NCBI GenBank assembly: GCA_035510575.1
Contig: DATKGV010000008.1
Coordinates: 68,618 to 132,617 of the forward strand
DNA length: 64,000 nucleotides
Reading direction: 5' to 3'
From: Minisyncoccota bacterium
GTDB lineage: Bacteria > Patescibacteriota > Minisyncoccia > Phycocordibacterales > UBA9973
The number at the start of each line of letters is the position of its first letter. Positions within the stretch are counted from its first letter, which is position 1. Both the position numbers and the translations under genes were made by a program. The notes beneath the pieces were generated by a model. That model made no database searches. It was not told the DNA's origin and saw only the letters and a list, made by a program, of their open reading frames with translations. Below are positions 3,282-38,123 of the stretch, one piece after another.

Positions 3282-5971
3282 TTATTATCGCCATGAAAAA
3301 AATTTTGCCTTACATTCTCATAATTTCAGTCATCGCAAATTTCTTTGCGCCTATTAGCGTGGGTATGGACAGCAATTACAGAGTGAATGTAAAGAGCAAT
3401 ACGGCCAGCGCGGCCGGGTTCGATGATACTCCAACCGGCTATAAAAATGCTTTTCCAAACACAAGTAGTGTTGTTTCTGCTGGCCGTATAGATGTAATAC
3501 CGCCTGATAATAAAACAGCCACAATGGTGGTTAATATTACTTTAAGCACCGGTGTTGCTTCAGGGGGAGATGCGTCAGACAATTGGAGTCATGCGCAATA
3601 CGAAGGAGAAGGCACAGGGGGTGTCACATTTTTTGCTGATAATGATTTTATCTTAGTTATAAAAGATAATAACAATCCAAATCTAACTGGCTGGCTTGAT
3701 GTTACCAACGCACTGTTAAACCTATCTAATACTGGCGGTATGAATTATTTGGGAAACATGACAGGGAAATCTGGGTGGCGAGGGGACAGTAAAATGCCAA
3801 TTTCTATTTCCAATGATGTTCTTGTTAAAGATATCTCGCCTATAGGAACTCCCGGATTATCGTCATTGCAAGCAGGAGGAAGTTATACTGTAACTTTGTA
3901 TTATAAAGGATGTTATGACAATGATGTGACAGATATACTAGACAGAATCTGCACTGGTGGAAAAGCCGGAGTAGATATTCTTCAAAAGGAGAGCACTCTT
4001 TCACCGGTAATAAATAGATATTTCAGCATAGCAAGCACTCCTCCTATTGTTATCCAAAAACAAGGCACTACCGGGGGAGCTATCAGTAAAGGGCAGGCAA
4101 CAATGGTGCCAGGAGCTGTAGATACTATGCCATATTGCTTCAAGGATCCTTTTGATCTCAGTCCTGCGGGCTGCGCGGCGCAGCTTTTGTATTATGTATT
4201 ATTTGTTCCGACATCATTCGTGTTCGCGCTGACTGGAAGATTTTTTGATTTTGTTTTCGCGTATTCCATAAGCGACTCTTCTTACAGATCGGCTTTCGTG
4301 GTACAAGGATGGGGTCTTGTGCGCGATTTCTGCAATATGTTCTTTATCTTTGTTCTGCTTTATATCGCCTTTGCCACAATCCTTAATCTTCAAGGATTCA
4401 AGACAAAAGAAATGATTATAAATGTGGTCATCATAGGCATACTGATCAATTTCAGCTTATTCGCCACGCAAGTTATTATCGACACTTCAAACATACTGGC
4501 AAGAGTTTTCTATAATTCAAACGCTATTACGATTACTCAAAACAGCACTGCTGGAACTGGACTCGGCACTGTTACCGCAGGTCCCAATGGAGAATTGCCG
4601 TTATCAGCCGCTTTAGTTAATAAAGTTAATCCTCAAAACTTAATTATCAATGCAAACCAAGTCGGTTATTTGCCGGACAAGGGAGGCGTGGGCAACAAAG
4701 ACAAGACAACCCTAGGAACAGGAACGTTTATTCTGGTCACATTGCTCGCTACTGCGGTAAACATAGTCGGCTTGATGGTATTTCTATCTGTCGGCTTGAT
4801 CTTCGTTGCTAGAGTTGTCGGGCTGTGGCTGGCTATGATATTTGTTCCTCTGGCATTCTTCTCCTATACAGTGCCAGCGATGCAAGGCCTTGATTACATC
4901 GGGTGGAAAAAATGGTGGCCTGAGACGCTGAAGCTGGCATTTTTGGCTCCAATCTTCATATTCTTCCTTTATTTGATACTTAAATTCCTTGATACCGGCC
5001 TTAGCTTGATAAACGCTCAAGGCCAAAGCGGTCTGGCATTCGTGGTTTCAATTATGTTGCCGTTCATATTTATTATGGTGCTCTTAATGAAAGCTAAAGA
5101 TGTTGCAAGGACGATGTCAGGAACTATGGGACAAGGGATTGTTGATGGTGTTAAAAAATATGGTGGTATGGCTGCTGGGGCAGGTCTTGGTGTAGCAGCT
5201 TTTGCTGGAAGACAAACTATTGGACGTCTAGCCACTAATGCAATGCAAAGTAATAAATTCATGGACTGGGCAGGAAAAAATAAAATTGGCGCTCGCGCAT
5301 TAAAGATGACAAGCGGTGTTGCTTCAGGTAGCTTTGATGCAAGGGGAGTAAAGATTGCTGGTAAAGATTTAAGTTCAACTGGTCTTGATGTAGGAAAAAG
5401 TGCAAAGGCTGGTGGTTTTGCTAAGATAAGAGAAGATAAAGTTAAAAAAGAAGAAGAGTTTGCAAAAAAACATCTTGATACAAGTGATTATGGAATGGCT
5501 GAATTAAGAAGTGGAAATATGTCAAAAGCAAAAGCTGATAGAGTTATTGAACAAATTAAAAAATCTAATAATGGTAAAGGGGAACTTCCTGTTGATAAAA
5601 ATGGTAAACCTATAAGTGAAGCGGCATTTAGAACTCAATTAGTAATGGGTGACGGGTTGGATGCAAAAACTGCTCAAACAGTAGCTGATCAAATGAGTTC
5701 TGCTAGAAGAAATGATAGAGCTGATCAATTTAAAAATAGCATATTTGCAACAAATAGAATAAAAGCAAATAAAATTAGAAAGAATCCGGAAAATCTGAAA
5801 GAAGCGCGTCAATTAGCTGCTACTGTTGCAGCCCTTGCTGCAGCGCAAAAAGCTACTGAAGGCGGACATAATAAACCGGAGGCACATAAAGAACCTGCTG
5901 TTCAAGCCGCACCAGCACCTGCTGCAACTCCAGCATCTGCTCCATCGGGTGGAGAGACGCATCATGCTTAA
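3275..5971 (+). CDS. polytopic membrane protein, VirB6/TrbL-like (Tn916 ORF15-like) conjugation/T4SS channel component with a Lys/Ala-rich C-terminal tail
   Basis: 898 aa; signal/TM at N-terminus, large extracytoplasmic domain, then >6 hydrophobic helices (e.g. FCNMFFIFVLLYIAFATI, IINVVIIGILINFSLFATQVIID, IVGLMVFLSVGLIFVARVVGLWLAMIFVPLAFF); located upstream of the PrgI-like and VirB4-like genes. Confidence 0.45.
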   Translation: MVIIIAMKKILPYILIISVIANFFAPISVGMDSNYRVNVKSNTASAAGFDDTPTGYKNAFPNTSSVVSAGRIDVIPPDNKTATMVVNITLSTGVASGGDASDNWSHAQYEGEGTGGVTFFADNDFILVIKDNNNPNLTGWLDVTNALLNLSNTGGMNYLGNMTGKSGWRGDSKMPISISNDVLVKDISPIGTPGLSSLQAGGSYTVTLYYKGCYDNDVTDILDRICTGGKAGVDILQKESTLSPVINRYFSIASTPPIVIQKQGTTGGAISKGQATMVPGAVDTMPYCFKDPFDLSPAGCAAQLLYYVLFVPTSFVFALTGRFFDFVFAYSISDSSYRSAFVVQGWGLVRDFCNMFFIFVLLYIAFATILNLQGFKTKEMIINVVIIGILINFSLFATQVIIDTSNILARVFYNSNAITITQNSTAGTGLGTVTAGPNGELPLSAALVNKVNPQNLIINANQVGYLPDKGGVGNKDKTTLGTGTFILVTLLATAVNIVGLMVFLSVGLIFVARVVGLWLAMIFVPLAFFSYTVPAMQGLDYIGWKKWWPETLKLAFLAPIFIFFLYLILKFLDTGLSLINAQGQSGLAFVVSIMLPFIFIMVLLMKAKDVARTMSGTMGQGIVDGVKKYGGMAAGAGLGVAAFAGRQTIGRLATNAMQSNKFMDWAGKNKIGARALKMTSGVASGSFDARGVKIAGKDLSSTGLDVGKSAKAGGFAKIREDKVKKEEEFAKKHLDTSDYGMAELRSGNMSKAKADRVIEQIKKSNNGKGELPVDKNGKPISEAAFRTQLVMGDGLDAKTAQTVADQMSSARRNDRADQFKNSIFATNRIKANKIRKNPENLKEARQLAATVAALAAAQKATEGGHNKPEAHKEPAVQAAPAPAATPASAPSGGETHHA

Positions 5972-7097: not shown

Positions 7098-7186
7098 CCT
7101 CCTCCCCTTAATAAGGGGAGGATTGAGGAGGGGTCTTTGTGTTTGACCCCCTCCCAGCCTCCCCCTTGTTAAGGGGGAGGGGAAGA
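7098..7186. repeat. GC-rich palindromic intergenic element (two hairpins: CCCCTTAATAAGGGG and CCCCCTTGTTAAGGGGG)
   Basis: A GC island in an AT-rich background. Its first half is the reverse complement of the second half of the element at 10155-10243 (cctcctccccttaataaggggaggattgaggagggg vs cccctcctcaatcctccccttattaaggggaagagg). Confidence 0.7.
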
Positions 7187-10154: not shown

Positions 10155-10243
10155 CGCCCCCTGCTAAGGGGGAGATGCCAAGGGCAGAGGGGGTGCCTAC
10201 TAATTCACCCCTCCTCAATCCTCCCCTTATTAAGGGGAAGAGG
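10155..10243. repeat. GC-rich palindromic intergenic element, inverted copy of 7098-7186
   Basis: Hairpins CCCCCTGCTAAGGGGG and CCCCTTATTAAGGGG; the 3' half is the reverse complement of the 5' half of the 7098-7186 element. Confidence 0.7.
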
Positions 10244-20690: not shown

Positions 20691-20702
20691 ATTAATTAAT
20701 AA

Positions 20703-20745
20703 AATGCTACAAACTCTGCCATGGCAGAGTTTGTAGCATTTTTAA
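20703..20745. terminator. bidirectional rho-independent terminator between convergent genes
   Basis: Perfect ~19-bp palindrome aatgctacaaactctgcca/tggcagagtttgtagcatt flanked by A-run upstream and T-run downstream. Confidence 0.6.
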
Positions 20746-24747: not shown

Positions 24748-25236
24748 CTAAACACCTGTGGAAAACCTTTCACAGGCAAGACATGTTAATCCTATGGCTA
24801 TAGCATCTAATTCGTCATCCGAATTGATTGAATTGTCCACTTTTATCAGCTTTAGAACCATGCGAATTACCATATCTTTGGTGGCTTTGCCGTAGCCGGT
24901 TACAGCCACTTTTATCTGCGGCGGAGTATATTCAAATATCGAAAGGCCGTTGCGCGACGCGCTATATACGATAACTCCGCGCGCCTCGGCTACTCCCATA
25001 ACTGTTTTCTGATTAGTGGTGAAATATAATTTTTCTATGGCTAGCGCTTCTGGCTTGTATTTTTTTATAACTCTCTCAATTTCATTGCCGATAGCAGTCA
25101 ATCTTTCATGGAAAGGAATTTTAGCAGATGTTTTGAAACAACTCGAATAAACCAGAACGTCTTTTTGTTTCGGTGTTCTCTCTATGACAGCTATTCCGAT
25201 TCTTTCAAATCCCGGATCAATTGCTAGTATTTTCAT
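24748..25236 (-). CDS. ruvC: Holliday junction resolvase RuvC
   Basis: MKILAIDPGFERIGIAVIE N-terminus with catalytic Asp, RNase H-like fold length (162 aa), C-terminal LDAIAIGLT motif. Confidence 0.8.
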   Translation of the reverse strand: MKILAIDPGFERIGIAVIERTPKQKDVLVYSSCFKTSAKIPFHERLTAIGNEIERVIKKYKPEALAIEKLYFTTNQKTVMGVAEARGVIVYSASRNGLSIFEYTPPQIKVAVTGYGKATKDMVIRMVLKLIKVDNSINSDDELDAIAIGLTCLACERFSTGV

Positions 25237-25248
25237 AAATACAATTAT

Positions 25249-25294
25249 ATACTAATTTCACCCCTCAGTCCTTCGGACAGCTCCCCTTCGCAGG
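25249..25294. repeat. left terminal inverted repeat flanking DUF559 gene (contains hairpin gctcccct-tcgc-aggggagc)
   Basis: cacccctcagtc..cagctccccttcgcaggggagcaaaa is the reverse complement of 25667-25712 except for a short central substitution. Confidence 0.75.
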
Positions 25295-25304
25295 GGAGCA
25301 AAAC

Positions 25305-25649
25305 TCAAAACTCTGATTTAATTTTCATCAAAACACTCTCAATATTTTTATCAATTTCATTATTCCAAAATCTTAGAGTTTTTATTCCAAGAGATTTCAT
25401 ATAATTTTCTCTTTCAATATCATATTCTTTTGCTTCTAAGTGTTGAGAACCGTCTATTTCGATAACTAAATTTTTTTCTTTACAATAAAAATCTACAATA
25501 TATGGCCCAATACCTTGTTGTCGTCTAAATTTTATTACTAAATTTTCATTTTTTAAATAAAACCATAATTTGAATTCTTGTGGAGTTAAAGATTTTCTTA
25601 ATTCTTTTCTTCTATCTTTAAATTTTGATTTATTAAAAATCTCATACAT
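25305..25649 (-). CDS. DUF559-type endonuclease-domain protein (Vsr/restriction-endonuclease-like fold)
   Basis: 114 aa; IVDFYCKEKNLVIEIDGSQHLEAKEYDIERENYMKSLGIKTLRFWNNEI matches the DUF559 core (D...E.DG..H pattern); it sits between ruvC and ruvB, flanked by 45-bp inverted repeats. Confidence 0.55.
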   Translation of the reverse strand: MYEIFNKSKFKDRRKELRKSLTPQEFKLWFYLKNENLVIKFRRQQGIGPYIVDFYCKEKNLVIEIDGSQHLEAKEYDIERENYMKSLGIKTLRFWNNEIDKNIESVLMKIKSEF

Positions 25650-25666
25650 AATGATATTATATAATT

Positions 25667-25712
25667 TTTTGCTCCCCTGCGAAGGGGAGCTGTCATTTAT
25701 GACTGAGGGGTG
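25667..25712. repeat. right terminal inverted repeat flanking DUF559 gene
   Basis: ttttgctcccctgcgaaggggagctgtc...ctgaggggtg, reverse complement of 25249-25294. Confidence 0.75.
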
Positions 25713-25713
25713 T

Positions 25714-26706
25714 TTACTTTTCTACATAATCAAATCCTAAATGCTCGTAACCTTTTTTTGTGACTGTTCGTCCGCGAGTGGTGCGCTCAATTAATCCAAG
25801 CTGGATCAGATACGGCTCAATCACTTCTTCAATCGTCGCTTCCTCTTCAGAAGTTGCCGCAGCGACAGTTTTTAATCCGACTGGTCCGCCGCCAAATTTG
25901 CTGATGATTATTTCAAGAATCCGCCTGTCGGACGCAGATAATCCGAGTTCATCAACTTCAAGCAAAGCCAAAGCTTTTTTTACTGTCTCTTTAGATAAAG
26001 GAATTTTGTGGACTTGGGCGTAATCGCGGCAGCGTTTCAGAAAATAATTGGCAATTCGAGGAGTAAATCTGGCGCGCTTGGCTATTTCGTTCAAGGCTTC
26101 ATCATCTAATTTAACTCCAAGTATTTTTGCCGATCGCATCAGGATCTTTTTTATCTCGTCATGAGTATAGAATTCAAGCCGGAATGTTCCGCCGGAGAAT
26201 CGCGAACGAAGAGGGGATGATAACAGCGCAATTCTGGTGGTAGCAGCGATGAGAGTGAATGGCGGAAGTTCAAGCTGTATGGTGCGGGCTGAAGGTCCTT
26301 TGCCGATGATAATATCAAGCACACCGGATTCCATAGCGGGGTAGAGAACCTCTTCAATCATTTTATTCAAGCGATGAATTTCATCTATAAAGACGATATC
26401 GCCGGGCGCAAGATTAGTAAGAATCGAAGCCAGATCGCCGACTTTATCTATCGCCGGACCTGAAGTTATTTTAATCTGCCTGTTTGTCTCTTTAGCTATC
26501 AAATGAGCAAGCGTGGTCTTGCCCAAGCCCGGCGGCCCGTAAAAGAGTATGTGTTCGGCCGGATGGGATCGCTCTTCCGCCGCAGTCAGAAGTATTTTAA
26601 GATTTGCCTTAATATTTTCCTGGCCGATATATTCATCCCAGGCGGTTGGACGCAGCGTCTGGTCAAGGTATCTTTCGTCTTTTGTTGTTTGTTCAGTGCT
26701 TGACAT
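25714..26706 (-). CDS. ruvB: Holliday junction branch-migration ATPase RuvB
   Basis: LRPTAWDEYIGQ, Walker A GPPGLGKTTLA, Walker B VFIDEIHRL, C-terminal winged helix. Confidence 0.9.
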   Translation of the reverse strand: MSSTEQTTKDERYLDQTLRPTAWDEYIGQENIKANLKILLTAAEERSHPAEHILFYGPPGLGKTTLAHLIAKETNRQIKITSGPAIDKVGDLASILTNLAPGDIVFIDEIHRLNKMIEEVLYPAMESGVLDIIIGKGPSARTIQLELPPFTLIAATTRIALLSSPLRSRFSGGTFRLEFYTHDEIKKILMRSAKILGVKLDDEALNEIAKRARFTPRIANYFLKRCRDYAQVHKIPLSKETVKKALALLEVDELGLSASDRRILEIIISKFGGGPVGLKTVAAATSEEEATIEEVIEPYLIQLGLIERTTRGRTVTKKGYEHLGFDYVEK

Positions 26707-26969
26707 TATTTTTTAATTATGATATAGTTCCCAAAGAAATTGATACATCTTGATTATAGCATTTGCGCGAAGAGGACATAAATCTCTAAGCAATCGGCCC
26801 TGCGCTCTACATGCGTGCATAGGACGCCCTGGTTATATTTATATTTACTGGGACTATCCTGTAATCGTATTTTACTTTAAGAATGAATGTTCCTAAAGGA
26901 TTGTTTAGAGATTTATGTTTTTTTCTTTTTTATCTTTACAAGATGTACTTTTAGTTATATCATGTTGTT

Positions 26970-27653
26970 ATGAATAAAAAAAGTAAAATTTTAATAGTAA
27001 TTATTGTTTTATTAACTTTAATAATAGCAGTTTTATTATATTTCTTATTAAACGATAAGATTTCTAAAAACACCAATAAGAGCACCTCAAATAATGTTGT
27101 TACAGATTCAAATTTAACTGTTTTTAAGGCTAAGAATATGCCATTTCAATTTTCAGCTCCGAAAATTTGGAGTATATTTAATCCAGCAGATATTTCGTTA
27201 CCGACCGTTCTAAAACCCGAGTTAGATTTGAATAATAATTTAGAATTACATGATAATCATATTGAATCAGCCTTATTAATTATAAATAAAACCTATCTAC
27301 ATCCAATAATTGATGTGTCTGTTCATAAACTTTCTGAAAATGATTCTTTTAAAAAAGATATTTTTGGTAATGATTCATCTGATCTAGACAATGCTTGCTC
27401 ATCTTTAATAGGTGGTATGGCAGTTCATGGTTGGATTAAAGAGAAAAAGATTATTAATAATCTCACATATATTAGATGTGAAGATATAGAATTACCTGCT
27501 TATGATGATGTTCATTATATTATTACGGACAATAATTACATAGCGTTCTTTTTCTTTAGGTTTAAGGAACAAGGAAGAACATTAAAAGCAGTTGATGACT
27601 ATTCAGCATATTTACCCGATTTTGAAACAATGGTTCAATCAGTTAAATTCTAA
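26970..27653 (+). CDS. membrane-anchored hypothetical protein
   Basis: 227 aa, N-terminal TM (ILIVIIVLLTLIIAVLLYFLL), very AT-rich. Confidence 0.4.
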   Translation: MNKKSKILIVIIVLLTLIIAVLLYFLLNDKISKNTNKSTSNNVVTDSNLTVFKAKNMPFQFSAPKIWSIFNPADISLPTVLKPELDLNNNLELHDNHIESALLIINKTYLHPIIDVSVHKLSENDSFKKDIFGNDSSDLDNACSSLIGGMAVHGWIKEKKIINNLTYIRCEDIELPAYDDVHYIITDNNYIAFFFFRFKEQGRTLKAVDDYSAYLPDFETMVQSVKF

Positions 27654-37070: not shown

Positions 37071-38123
37071 TTATCTTTTTTTCTTTTTACCATAAAATAA
37101 TTTCTGATGCCTGTTGCAGAAATGCGCGCTGCGGCCGTCAAGGACTTTCCTTATTATAACACCATCGCAACCTTTCTTTCCACAAGGGTCGCCTCGCTTG
37201 CCGTAGGCATTATGATGATTCTGAAATCTGCCTCTTTTTCCGTTAATATCCCTATAATCCGACATTGAATCGCCGCCGAAATCTATGCCTTTGCTTAAAA
37301 CTTCTTTCATTGATTTATAAAGCAGCTGCAATTGCTTTATCGGAATGCAAACAGATTTTGATTCAGGATGAATGCCAGCCATCCAAAGCATCTCGTCGGA
37401 ATATATGTTGCCAATGCCGGCTATAACTGATTGATTCATCAAGACGGTTTTTATATTGCCATTTGTTTTCGTACCTAATCTTTCTTTGAATTTTAGAAAT
37501 GTGAAATTTTTATCCAAAGGTTCCGGCCCGATATTTTTCAGATGAATGCTTTCACTGGCAGTATCGGTATTCATCAGCGTTACTTTGCCGAATTTGCGCG
37601 CATCGGAAAACACGAATTGCTTGCCGTTTGAAAGAGAGAAAACAACATGTATGAATCTGTTATATAGATCATGCAGCGCCGCGCGCTCGTCGGGACTGGG
37701 GGACCAAGACCCCACTCTTCGCCCTCCCCTTGGCAAGGGGAGCCTGCCCGAATGACTCGGTCGGGCGGGGGTTGGGGAGGGGTGAAAAACATATTTGCCG
37801 TAAATAATATGCCCAGTCATTTTCAGATGTATTAAGATTGTGTTTTTTCTCCCCCTGCCTGAGGGGGAGTGGCCAGAGGCCGAGGGGGTGGGAGAAAGAT
37901 TTATCAAAATATTCTTGGCCCGGCGTTCTACATTTAAAATTTTACTTCCAACAACTTCCTTCTTGAATTTTTTATAGAAGGCTTCATCCTTGATTGTATT
38001 TTTAAACTGTTTAATTTTCTGGTTCTTTTTAGCCAAATCAGTCCAAACATCAGCAATAGACAAGCCCGGCAGGACTTTTTGCAAGCCATTTACTGTTGTT
38101 GTAACTTCTGGCAATTCCGGCAT
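37071..38123 (-). CDS. fpg: formamidopyrimidine-DNA glycosylase (Fpg/MutM) carrying two in-frame GC-rich repeat insertions
   Basis: N-terminal PELPEVTT (catalytic Pro2/Glu3), H2TH region, C-terminal zinc finger CGKKGCDG...CNRHQ; 350 aa vs ~270-290 typical, the excess being Pro/Ser/Arg/Gly-rich segments encoded by 37688-37785 and 37849-37892. Confidence 0.7.
   Translation of the reverse strand: MPELPEVTTTVNGLQKVLPGLSIADVWTDLAKKNQKIKQFKNTIKDEAFYKKFKKEVVGSKILNVERRAKNILINLSPTPSASGHSPSGRGRKNTILIHLKMTGHIIYGKYVFHPSPTPARPSHSGRLPLPRGGRRVGSWSPSPDERAALHDLYNRFIHVVFSLSNGKQFVFSDARKFGKVTLMNTDTASESIHLKNIGPEPLDKNFTFLKFKERLGTKTNGNIKTVLMNQSVIAGIGNIYSDEMLWMAGIHPESKSVCIPIKQLQLLYKSMKEVLSKGIDFGGDSMSDYRDINGKRGRFQNHHNAYGKRGDPCGKKGCDGVIIRKVLDGRSAHFCNRHQKLFYGKKKKR
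37688..37785. repeat. GC-rich palindromic element inserted in-frame in fpg (insertion 2)
   Basis: ccctccccttggcaaggggag hairpin and gggcgggggttggggaggggtg; same CCCCT-N4-5-AGGGG family as 7098-7186, 10155-10243 and the DUF559 IRs; encodes HPSPTPARPSHSGRLPLPRGGRRVGSWSPSP. Confidence 0.65.
37849..37892. repeat. GC-rich palindromic element inserted in-frame in fpg (insertion 1)
   Basis: ctccccctgcctgagggggag hairpin plus ggccagaggccgagggggtgggag; encodes PTPSASGHSPSGRGRKN between conserved Fpg beta-strands. Confidence 0.65.

Follow-up and report, generated by a model that had tools for sequence, protein, structure and literature searches.

Inverted triplex-type repeats around a DUF559 nuclease gene at the ruvB-ruvC junction of a Minisyncoccota bacterium, and the association of this nuclease family with such repeats in other phyla

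What is a small nuclease gene, enclosed by two almost identical inverted repeats, doing between ruvB and ruvC? The question is raised by a 64,000-nucleotide stretch of a Minisyncoccota bacterium genome (GenBank assembly GCA_035510575.1, contig DATKGV010000008.1, positions 68,618 to 132,617; the window in what follows), in which an earlier note had pointed out a gene of the DUF559 family flanked by hairpin-bearing repeats and described it as looking like a minimal selfish cassette. The analysis of this locus and its relatives showed that the unit is an insertion, that its arms belong to a known family of dispersed repeats, and that DUF559 nuclease and repeat motif are associated across bacterial phyla, predominantly in an inverted geometry.

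The gene (25305-25649, minus strand) encodes a protein of 114 residues that matches PF04480 with an E value of 3e-35, and it is located, as claimed in the earlier note, between ruvB (25714-26706, minus strand; RuvB_N E 4e-70, with RuvB_C and AAA_lid_4 also detected by Pfam) and ruvC (24748-25236, minus strand; RuvC E 2e-38), the host gene directly downstream of the insert. For comparison, 80 metagenome loci encoding RuvC proteins 63-86% identical to that of the window were used, 69 of which contained both ruvB and ruvC (individual loci are given below by L numbers). The gene order pilB-ruvB-ruvC-tyrS-PBP (penicillin-binding protein) is kept among these relatives, and in 36 of the 69 the gap between ruvB and ruvC is of 40 nt or less, mostly in the form TAA-N-ATG; a DUF559 gene was found within the gap in three of the 69. 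When the window was compared by blastn with six relatives with an empty site (L099, L109, L096, L098, L121 and L149), in which 1-14 nt separate the ruvB stop from the ruvC start, the homology ended just past the ruvB TAA and was picked up again 1 nt ahead of the ruvC ATG, which defines an inserted segment of 476 bp (25238-25713, minus strand). The limits of 25249-25712 proposed before were thus roughly right, the true insert being somewhat wider. In the RuvC tree the occupied junctions appear scattered, and the closest neighbours of the window (L096, L098, L121 and L149) are all empty at the junction; in addition, an occupied locus (L017) and an empty one (L128) are 95.5% identical in nucleotide sequence over ruvB and ruvC. 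As the sites are empty in most relatives, the nearest ones included, the 476-bp unit has been inserted between two genes, ruvB and ruvC, that otherwise lie close together, and the empty site and the invasion of a conserved operon foreseen in the earlier note were both found.

The limits of the insertion match the outer boxes of the arms, in the window as well as in the comparisons of L017 with L128 and of L020 with L021, the latter at another site, where the indel also extends from outer box to outer box. The DUF559 gene has a G+C content of 22% (12% at third codon positions), compared with 40-45% in the neighbouring genes, and its protein is 100% identical to one from a metagenome-assembled genome (MAG) of Candidatus Paceibacterota. 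Several independent metagenome assemblies of the same strain (L003, L008, L014 and L015) break exactly inside the inverted arms or where these end, so such cassettes may be under-assembled in short-read MAGs.

The two arms, delimited by inverted-repeat comparison and by mirror-repeat triads, are 46 nt long and lie upstream (25667-25712, minus strand; L orientation) and downstream (25259-25304, minus strand; R orientation) of the gene. They are perfectly complementary over blocks of 28 and 12 nt, in keeping with the near-perfect inverted repeats described in the earlier note, and form the longest inverted repeat spaced within 1.5 kb in the whole window. They differ only in 5-6 nt atop an internal mini-hairpin (CTTCG versus ATAAAT), the fourth stem pair of which carries a compensated change between the two arms. 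Going outward from the gene, each arm is composed of a T-run, a main hairpin GCTCCCCT-GCGA-AGGGGAGC, a T, the mini-hairpin and a box CTGAGGGGTG. Read on the minus strand, the upstream arm shows the complement of the G-box, CACCCCTCAG, at 25703-25712, the mini-hairpin GTCATAAATGAC at 25692-25703, the main hairpin GCTCCCCT-TCGC-AGGGGAGC at 25671-25690 and an A-tract at 25667-25670, and the downstream arm shows TTTT followed by the main hairpin GCTCCCCT-GCGA-AGGGGAGC at 25280-25299, the mini-hairpin GTCCGAAGGAC at 25268-25278 and the G-box CTGAGGGGTG at 25259-25268. In both arms, the purine arm AGGGGAG and the G-box GAGGGGT, as third strand, give seven compatible mirror triads; six or more triads were found in 57% of 210 modules, versus 13% of shuffles.

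By this anatomy, the arms can be assigned to the BoxC/PIT/TM family of intrastrand-triplex motifs. Repeats of the BoxC/PIT type were reportedly described by Hoyne and Maher in 2000, and, besides E. coli, over 260 genomes have them (Holder et al. 2015, PMC4666352). Common to both are a pyrimidine and a purine arm followed by a G-rich third arm in mirror repeat with at least 6-7 triads, a G/C-rich composition in AT-rich surroundings, dispersed copies often found as close inverted pairs, and a link to local rearrangement. Some arms at L032, L035 and L166 even carry the core of the E. coli consensus, GGAGAGGGTTAGGG, exactly or nearly so. The stem is CTCCCCT here and CCCTCNCCC in BoxC/PIT/TM. Another difference is found in the second loop, of 13-14 nt in the window, which exceeds both the 1-6 nt allowed in the published search (ITxF; PMC4666352) and the 0-10 nt of Hoyne et al.; the enlargement is due to a mini-hairpin of 9-17 nt, variable but perfectly paired, which places the motif outside the 1-6-nt limit. 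Perfect mini-hairpins of at least 4 bp were detected in 81 of 99 long-form motifs, against 10.6% of shuffles, and they represent 78 distinct sequences, so that the structure of this loop appears to be kept while its sequence is free. If DUF559 proteins are the cognate enzymes of these motifs, the mini-hairpins could be scars left where the enzyme cuts, by cleavage and repair through a hairpin intermediate. Short-form relatives of the motif, with TTA-type loops, are present in other loci. Moreover, the TM_ECO elements of E. coli are described as always intergenic (PMC4666352), in contrast to the motifs studied here, which also occur in frame inside genes. The chief difference from the published motifs is that the present ones bracket a nuclease gene: Holder et al. 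state that no mobility-related genes were ever found near TMs, and mention neither an endonuclease nor ycjD (PMC4666352).

The relationship between motif and nuclease was analyzed in 80 DUF559 loci from species-representative genomes of at least ten phyla, spanning Patescibacteria, Melainabacteria, Bacteroidota, Balneolaceae, Ignavibacteria, Firmicutes, Spirochaetes, Deferribacteres, Atribacteria, Cyanobacteria, Proteobacteria and others. Motif hairpins with pyrimidine and purine arms were present at 4.07 per kb at distances of up to 160 nt from the DUF559 gene, compared with 0.40 per kb in other DNA outside open reading frames (ORFs) and 0.08 per kb in the ORFs of the same loci, a 10-fold enrichment over the other non-ORF DNA (Poisson P 2e-66), and at least one motif was found near the gene in 59 loci. 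Many stand-alone DUF559 genes are flanked by inverted repeats of the triplex-motif type, in such a way that, where an oriented motif was present on both flanks, 20 pairs were inverted and 3 direct; the G-boxes face the gene in 15 of the inverted pairs, and the other five are arranged as in the window. In L022 the arm (CACCCCTCAGTC...GACAGCTCCCCTTCGCAGGGGAGC) is the same as in the window, with different, compensated mini-hairpins. In the RuvC-selected loci, chosen irrespective of DUF559, 22 motif hairpins were detected in 353 kb, around half of them in gaps containing a DUF559 gene, and most of the motif-bounded inserts at the ruvB-ruvC junction contain DUF559. These data show that the association of nuclease and motif extends over bacterial phyla and mostly takes the form of inverted pairs. 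The G+C content of the DUF559 genes in L016-L095 is 8-13 points under that of their flanks, whatever the composition of the host, for which avoidance of self-targets and easier melting between G/C-rich arms are two possibilities.

No paper tying the family to flanking repeats was found in the literature on DUF559, PF04480, COG2852, ycjD and Vsr-like proteins with repeats, so the partnership appears unreported, the triplex repeats themselves being a known orphan family. In a survey of predicted programmed-inversion targets, DUF559 domain-containing proteins are enriched (odds ratio 14) and left undiscussed (PMC9881135), an enrichment that fits with flanking inverted repeats.

In E. coli K-12, ycjD is the DUF559 gene annotated in the stretch examined; its product (PRK09767) belongs to the same family over its full length, with 48% identity to the protein of the window. 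The element TM_ECO #9 of the published list (1,351,239-1,351,204), which E. coli genomes contain in a median of 18 copies, is located 168 nt past the ycjD stop, on the strand of the gene and in the orientation of the downstream arm of the window. Given 18 TM loci in 4.6 Mb, we estimate the probability of such an adjacency by chance as roughly 0.2%. A degenerate BoxC-like sequence is also found downstream of ycjD. In this region (L176, 2860-2990), the last ~38 nt of ycjD (GAGACGGTGCTGGAGAATATTC...) are duplicated ~90 nt downstream, and the C-terminal residues of the protein (..RRSPSP) are now encoded by the BoxC-like sequence, which suggests that a motif was inserted into the 3' end of the gene, displacing its original end.

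The motif is not restricted to the neighbourhood of the nuclease. The 20-nt hairpin GCTCCCCT-N4-AGGGGAGC is present at only two places in the window, the arms themselves (0 expected), and the looser form CCCCT-N4-AGGGG gave 12 matches where 0.5 were expected, a 20-fold excess distributed over five loci, the cassette included, so that a genome-wide motif family does exist, as the earlier note had claimed. At least eight modules occupy these five loci. Among them there are two gene-less inverted doublets (7100-7180 and 10158-10238) with the arrangement R-spacer-L and G-boxes facing each other, each placed between co-directional genes just upstream of TATAAT/ATG; E. coli has five inverted TM_ECO pairs of similar appearance. 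Gene-less doublets of the form L-20 nt-R were also found in L017 and L115, and L017 carries stacked motif copies, as [L][R]...[R][R], which have multiplied independently of the gene. By analogy, such doublets would follow the pattern of non-autonomous and autonomous elements known from REPINs and RAYTs. The cargo between the same arms varies as well: DUF559 alone, a NUDIX gene alone (L101 and L102), NUDIX and DUF559 together (L120), or a reversed DUF559 gene with a HAD-like gene between the same arm types at the ruvB-ruvC junction (L115, 1917-2255), a reversal that is consistent with inversion by recombination between inverted motifs. The arms are, then, independent modules, which appear also single, as doublets, inside ORFs and around NUDIX or HAD-like cargo. 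This modifies the description of the unit as a minimal selfish cassette: its insertion, low G+C content and dispersed arm family agree with that description, and the implied role of the arms as private transposon ends does not hold.

In many of the DUF559 loci, the domain and its motifs are found in frame within larger ORFs (with DUF559 at ~4001-4340 in most). The first residue of these copies is W instead of M, and they have no start codon of their own, so the domain depends on translation of the host ORF. The hosts are an N6_N4 DNA methyltransferase of ~1000 residues, with two insertion points in orthologues (L046-L049, L052, L063 and L078), PrmA (L027), HsdR (L082), an HsdM-HsdS fusion (L065), a type IIG enzyme (L056 and L085) and an M14 peptidase (L039); the domain is also found at the N-termini of PurN, AroK and KsgA. 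Translated motif segments can be recognized in the hosts, e.g., SPSMKGWQAKPDGVV and TPLQEGN. In the window itself, an Fpg/MutM ORF (37071-38123, minus strand) contains two motif modules in frame (at 37690-37890), which add ~17 and ~39 extra residues (SPTPSASGHSPSGRGRK; HPSPTPARPSHSGRLPLPRGGRRVGSWSPSPDERAALHD), in such a manner that its N-terminal Pfam domain of 117 positions is stretched over 181 residues.

The protein encoded between the arms is a full-length member of its family. It matches PF04480 with 120.8 bits (cut-off 20.6) over profile positions 3-106 of 109, and the NCBIfam model PRK09767 (YcjD) over its full length with an E value of 1e-27, below the equivalog cut-off; MTES_1575 is its only other Pfam match. 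The residues D53, E64, D66 and H70, which provide the conserved acidic/His core of PD-(D/E)XK type, are invariant in 23 diverse members, in-frame copies included, as are R43, Q44 and W29. The ratio of nonsynonymous to synonymous substitution rates (dN/dS) against close homologs is 0.10-0.20, which indicates purifying selection on the nuclease at the sequence level. The nearest solved structure is NGO0050 of N. gonorrhoeae (PDB 3HRL), which belongs to the same family over its full length (E 3e-20 with a single sequence, 2e-33 with a profile), followed by the catalytic domain of the homing endonuclease I-Bth0305I (3R3P; hmmsearch profile E 1.4e-4). An AlphaFold model with a predicted local distance difference test (pLDDT) score of 74 retrieved the same two structures with Foldseek, 3HRL first and 3R3P second with a probability of 1.0 and a TM-score for I-Bth0305I of 0.57-0.65. 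The model thus predicts a Vsr-like PD-(D/E)XK fold with I-Bth0305I as the nearest characterised structure, in agreement with the homing-endonuclease-like, Vsr/restriction-endonuclease-fold nuclease of the earlier note; Vsr itself (1CW0) was not reached by the sequence profile at E values up to 10. No defence-system membership was detected by PADLOC, which gave weak nuclease-domain matches only (DpdF, E 7e-7) and no partner genes at the locus, and a homolog was found in just 3 of 50,697 phage records.

Regarding expression, a putative sigma-70-like promoter of the DUF559 gene was detected by a consensus scan at 25656-25683 on the minus strand (10/12 matches), with a -35 box TTCGCA in the loop of the main hairpin, a spacer of 16 nt and a consensus -10 box TATAAT that ends 6 nt ahead of the ATG, a leaderless-like arrangement; the layout hairpin-AAAAA-TATAAT-ATG is common to L018 and L020. 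As this promoter is inside the upstream arm, that arm would not be part of the DUF559 transcript. The outer tail of the insert (AAATTAGTATATAATTGTATTT; 25237-25258, minus strand) is missing from the empty-site relatives, in which ruvC directly abuts the ruvB stop, and it puts a second TATAAT (25244-25249) 7 nt ahead of the ruvC ATG; a junction of the form GAGGGGTG-(N)-TATAAT-N6-7-ATG is also found in L016, L017, L019, L115 and L120. The arms were also considered as intrinsic terminators, and this was discarded because neither hairpin is followed by a T/U-run on the mRNA strand, where A-runs or mixed sequence are found instead; the sole terminator-like scan match at the arms is on the antisense strand. 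No Rfam family was found for the arms, the cassette or a conserved element upstream of ruvB, at gathering or E-value thresholds.

Several known systems combine some of these features. One parallel is with the REP/REPIN-RAYT systems or REPtrons (PMC3116915, PMC3337134, PMC5581495), which also have a nuclease gene flanked by inverted copies of a dispersed palindromic repeat of the genome, a single genomic context with a neighbourhood conserved among relatives, repeat doublets elsewhere that resemble non-autonomous derivatives, and a repeat variant for each nuclease subfamily. By contrast, the enzyme here is a Vsr-like PD-(D/E)XK nuclease and not an HUH/Y1 transposase (IS200/IS605-like), the motifs are of the triplex type with three blocks and CACCCCTC/GAGGGGTG boxes, without a GTAG/CGTC tag, the presence of the unit is patchy among close relatives, and gene and repeats can be in frame within host proteins. 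With the Vsr-like homing endonuclease I-Bth0305I (PDB 3R3P; Dassa 2009, PMC2677866; Taylor 2011, PMC3239194) it shares a homologous catalytic domain and a small, selfish-looking gene in or between conserved genes of DNA metabolism, but it has 114 residues in total and no extra N-terminal DNA-binding domain, it is flanked by dispersed repeats, and it is intergenic between intact ruvB and ruvC instead of in an intron, intein or fractured gene; no Rfam intron or intein motifs were detected at the cassette. As in miniature inverted-repeat transposable elements (MITEs) and transposons with terminal inverted repeats (TIRs), such repeats surround a small unit with presence/absence polymorphism, although there is neither a target-site duplication nor a transposase of a known family, and the "TIRs" are self-contained and also found single. 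Finally, Rickettsia palindromic elements (RPEs) are short palindromic repeats in frame in housekeeping ORFs, translated as an extra peptide, which carry no protein-coding gene. The in-frame translated repeats of Fpg in the window and of PrmA, HsdR and DNA methyltransferases in related loci are comparable to them, but here a complete nuclease domain is placed between repeats, and the sequences are unrelated.

On these bases, we propose that the DUF559 gene, with its own promoter and bracketed by an inverted pair of BoxC/PIT/TM-type motifs, would constitute a cassette that also provides the outer-tail TATAAT before ruvC, and that gene and repeats would be a functional pair analogous to RAYTs and REP/REPINs. 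The nuclease would recognise the motif and cut or nick it, be it as duplex, as extruded hairpin or as folded single strand; the breaks would be repaired by recombination between motif copies, and in this way motifs, doublets and the DNA between inverted motifs, with the nuclease gene in it, would be copied to motif-bearing sites that are new or vacant. We give about an even chance to this reading, in which the action of the nuclease on the motif and break repair between copies would spread motifs, doublets and gene in a REPIN-RAYT-like partnership with a PD-(D/E)XK enzyme. Its extension to the whole domain, by which DUF559/YcjD proteins would be the cognate enzymes of BoxC/PIT/TM repeats throughout Bacteria, in a second and mechanistically distinct REPIN-RAYT-like symbiosis with motif doublets as non-autonomous and doublet plus nuclease as autonomous forms, and with a unit able to settle in frame in essential proteins, is put forward as a tentative and rather doubtful generalization.

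A number of observations count against this proposal. Binding or cutting of the motifs by DUF559 is something that we infer from sequence, and no stable triplex was found in vivo by Holder et al. (PMC4666352). Motifs occur also without the gene and around other cargo, and none was found near DUF559 in 21 of the 80 loci. In E. coli, only one of the 18 TM loci adjoins ycjD, and no match to a motif was found upstream of this gene, the counterpart of the upstream arm being absent. No convincing target-site duplication, also suggested for checking in the earlier note, was detected at three junction pairs (the window versus empty relatives, L017/L128 and L020/L021), with at most 2-3 A residues. In around ten contigs of the same strain, the cassette is always present and in a single orientation, so current activity is not visible; every contig with an identical RuvC or RuvB has the cassette, without presence/absence polymorphism within the strain. 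Close homologs of this DUF559 always adjoin ruvB, either in the ruvB-ruvC gap (the window, L017, L021, L115, L120, L154 and L146) or in the pilB-ruvB gap (L016, L018, L020, L025 and the contexts of P0080 and P0004), and the exact proteins P0080 and P0004, each present in at least 24 contigs, have one context only. A spread of the exact protein to multiple copies or contexts was therefore discarded, and the mobility implied in the earlier note does not extend to promiscuity, as the exact relatives of this lineage are always next to ruvB. Such fidelity fits with vertical residence or classical homing as well as with repeat-mediated spread. Lastly, the ruvB-ruvC junction of other relatives harbours unrelated low-G+C genes without arms (Fic, NYN, SDR, lipoprotein, a Cys-rich protein and YebC), which indicates that part of the pattern corresponds to a permissive hotspot.

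Some of these facts would be expected from a classical, free-standing homing endonuclease that cleaves vacant genomes at a conserved site within ruvB or close to it and is copied by double-strand-break repair with co-conversion of its flanks, the motifs being an incidental decoration of an unstable spot. All the close homologs (at least 65% identity) are directly beside ruvB in different species, they are present in some relatives only, at scattered places of the RuvC tree, I-Bth0305I is the nearest characterised fold, and DUF559 identity is nearly flat (65-84%) while that of RuvC spans 55-84%; between the window and L016, DUF559 is 80% identical and RuvC 61%. These flat identities are suggestive of exchange at the sequence level and not a proof of it. 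A strict co-divergence of DUF559 and host was also discarded: the correlation with RuvB identity (r = 0.84) rests on one outlier, and neither a vertical nor a horizontal history is proven. Homing leaves unexplained why the same type of motif, mostly in inverted pairs, is beside DUF559 in unrelated contexts and phyla, E. coli included; in addition, this protein of 114 residues lacks a separate domain for DNA binding such as I-Bth0305I has, and the RuvC tree gave no signal of co-conversion. We consider homing by itself an unlikely explanation, which is nevertheless compatible with the partnership of nuclease and repeat. The motifs could also be primary, as unstable and recombinogenic non-B-DNA repeats forming hotspots that capture small genes, with DUF559 as a frequent passenger or as a host-beneficial repair nuclease for such structures. 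The varied cargo between the same L and R arms, the multiplication of motifs independently of the gene in L017 and the condition of the ruvB-ruvC junction as a general hotspot speak for this possibility; however, from a passive passenger neither a 10-fold enrichment over at least ten phyla nor a conserved inverted geometry is expected, most motif-bounded inserts found without selection for DUF559 contain it nonetheless, and purifying selection together with start-less in-frame copies of the domain point to a tight unit of gene and motif, so that we regard it as improbable.

The least probable explanation, to which we give very little credit, is a stable resident gene with ordinary regulatory hairpins at its flanks, which would terminate transcription, stabilise the RNA or serve as RNase III processing stems that free the DUF559 message from a ruvB-ruvC transcript. 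The same junction and the same arm type recur in L017, L021, L115, L120 and L154, so the conservation of position and flanks, which the earlier note held as contrary to its own reading, was found in part, while most relatives are empty; moreover, the two arms could pair at the RNA level into a duplex of ~37 bp enclosing the ORF, and the L arm overlaps a promoter-like site. Against a resident gene, the whole unit is missing in most relatives, the nearest included, and Fpg, PrmA and HsdR contain motifs in frame, at positions that cannot serve as terminators, and it is these empty sites and in-ORF motifs that make it unlikely. The lack of a T-run on the mRNA strand, with a terminator-like call in antisense only, the location of the promoter of the gene inside the upstream arm, and the published absence of promoter or terminator activity of PIT elements in E. 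coli point in the same direction.

Other elements were observed in and around the same junction. In the ruvB-ruvC gap of L104, L114, L118, L129, L131 and L161 there is a different palindromic element of ~110 nt (AAAATAGTTCTATCAGAGGGG...CCCTCTGAGAGAA.CTATTTT), which is also present in the pilB-ruvB spacer of L017 (2530-2650), is absent from the window and has no Rfam match. The gap of L123, L134 and L148 contains a small gene for a four-helix-bundle protein, which we take to be similar to the 23S rRNA intervening sequence (IVS) proteins, with its own flanking repeats of the AAAGTTTATAAAG type, another repeat-bracketed mini-cassette. Between ruvB and an ORF of 227 codons in the window (26760-26930) there is a conserved element of ~150 nt with a closing stem of 20 bp (CATAAATCTCTAAGCAATC.../...GATTGTTTAGAGATTTATG), located between pilB and ruvB in all relatives (L017, 2674-2856; L099, 1751-1933; ~45 other loci) and with no Rfam match. 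Its consensus fold has -41.9 kcal/mol on the plus strand of the window and -22.3 kcal/mol on the other strand, and it is probably an unannotated small RNA. The neighbouring 227-residue ORF (26970-27653, plus strand), between this element and pilB, has an N-terminal membrane anchor, a G+C content of 26.5% and no family match; the relatives have no gene at this place, and it looks like a second low-G+C insertion nearby. Farther away, a perfect 42-bp palindrome (20701-20742; AAAATGCTACAAACTCTGCCA|TGGCAGAGTTTGTAGCATTTT) is located between convergent genes, and in L100 (585-616) its 32-bp core is found again, a short way upstream of ruvC, so it may represent another family of dispersed palindromes.

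In E. coli, the BoxC/PIT/TM repeats were already known in the 1990s, and they have been tied to genomic instability, with no enzyme or mechanism of spread so far assigned to them; DUF559, represented by YcjD in E. coli, is a widespread nuclease family, and the link between them gives each a testable role. For annotation, G/C-rich hairpins of three blocks around small AT-rich DUF559 genes should be taken as accessory insertions and not as terminators. If the proposed partnership is true, DUF559 would be the missing enzyme behind a long-known orphan family of repeats, the pair would be a non-HUH counterpart to the REPIN-RAYT systems, and it would account for some of the peptide insertions that bacteria of the candidate phyla and others have in Fpg, PrmA, HsdR and methyltransferases.

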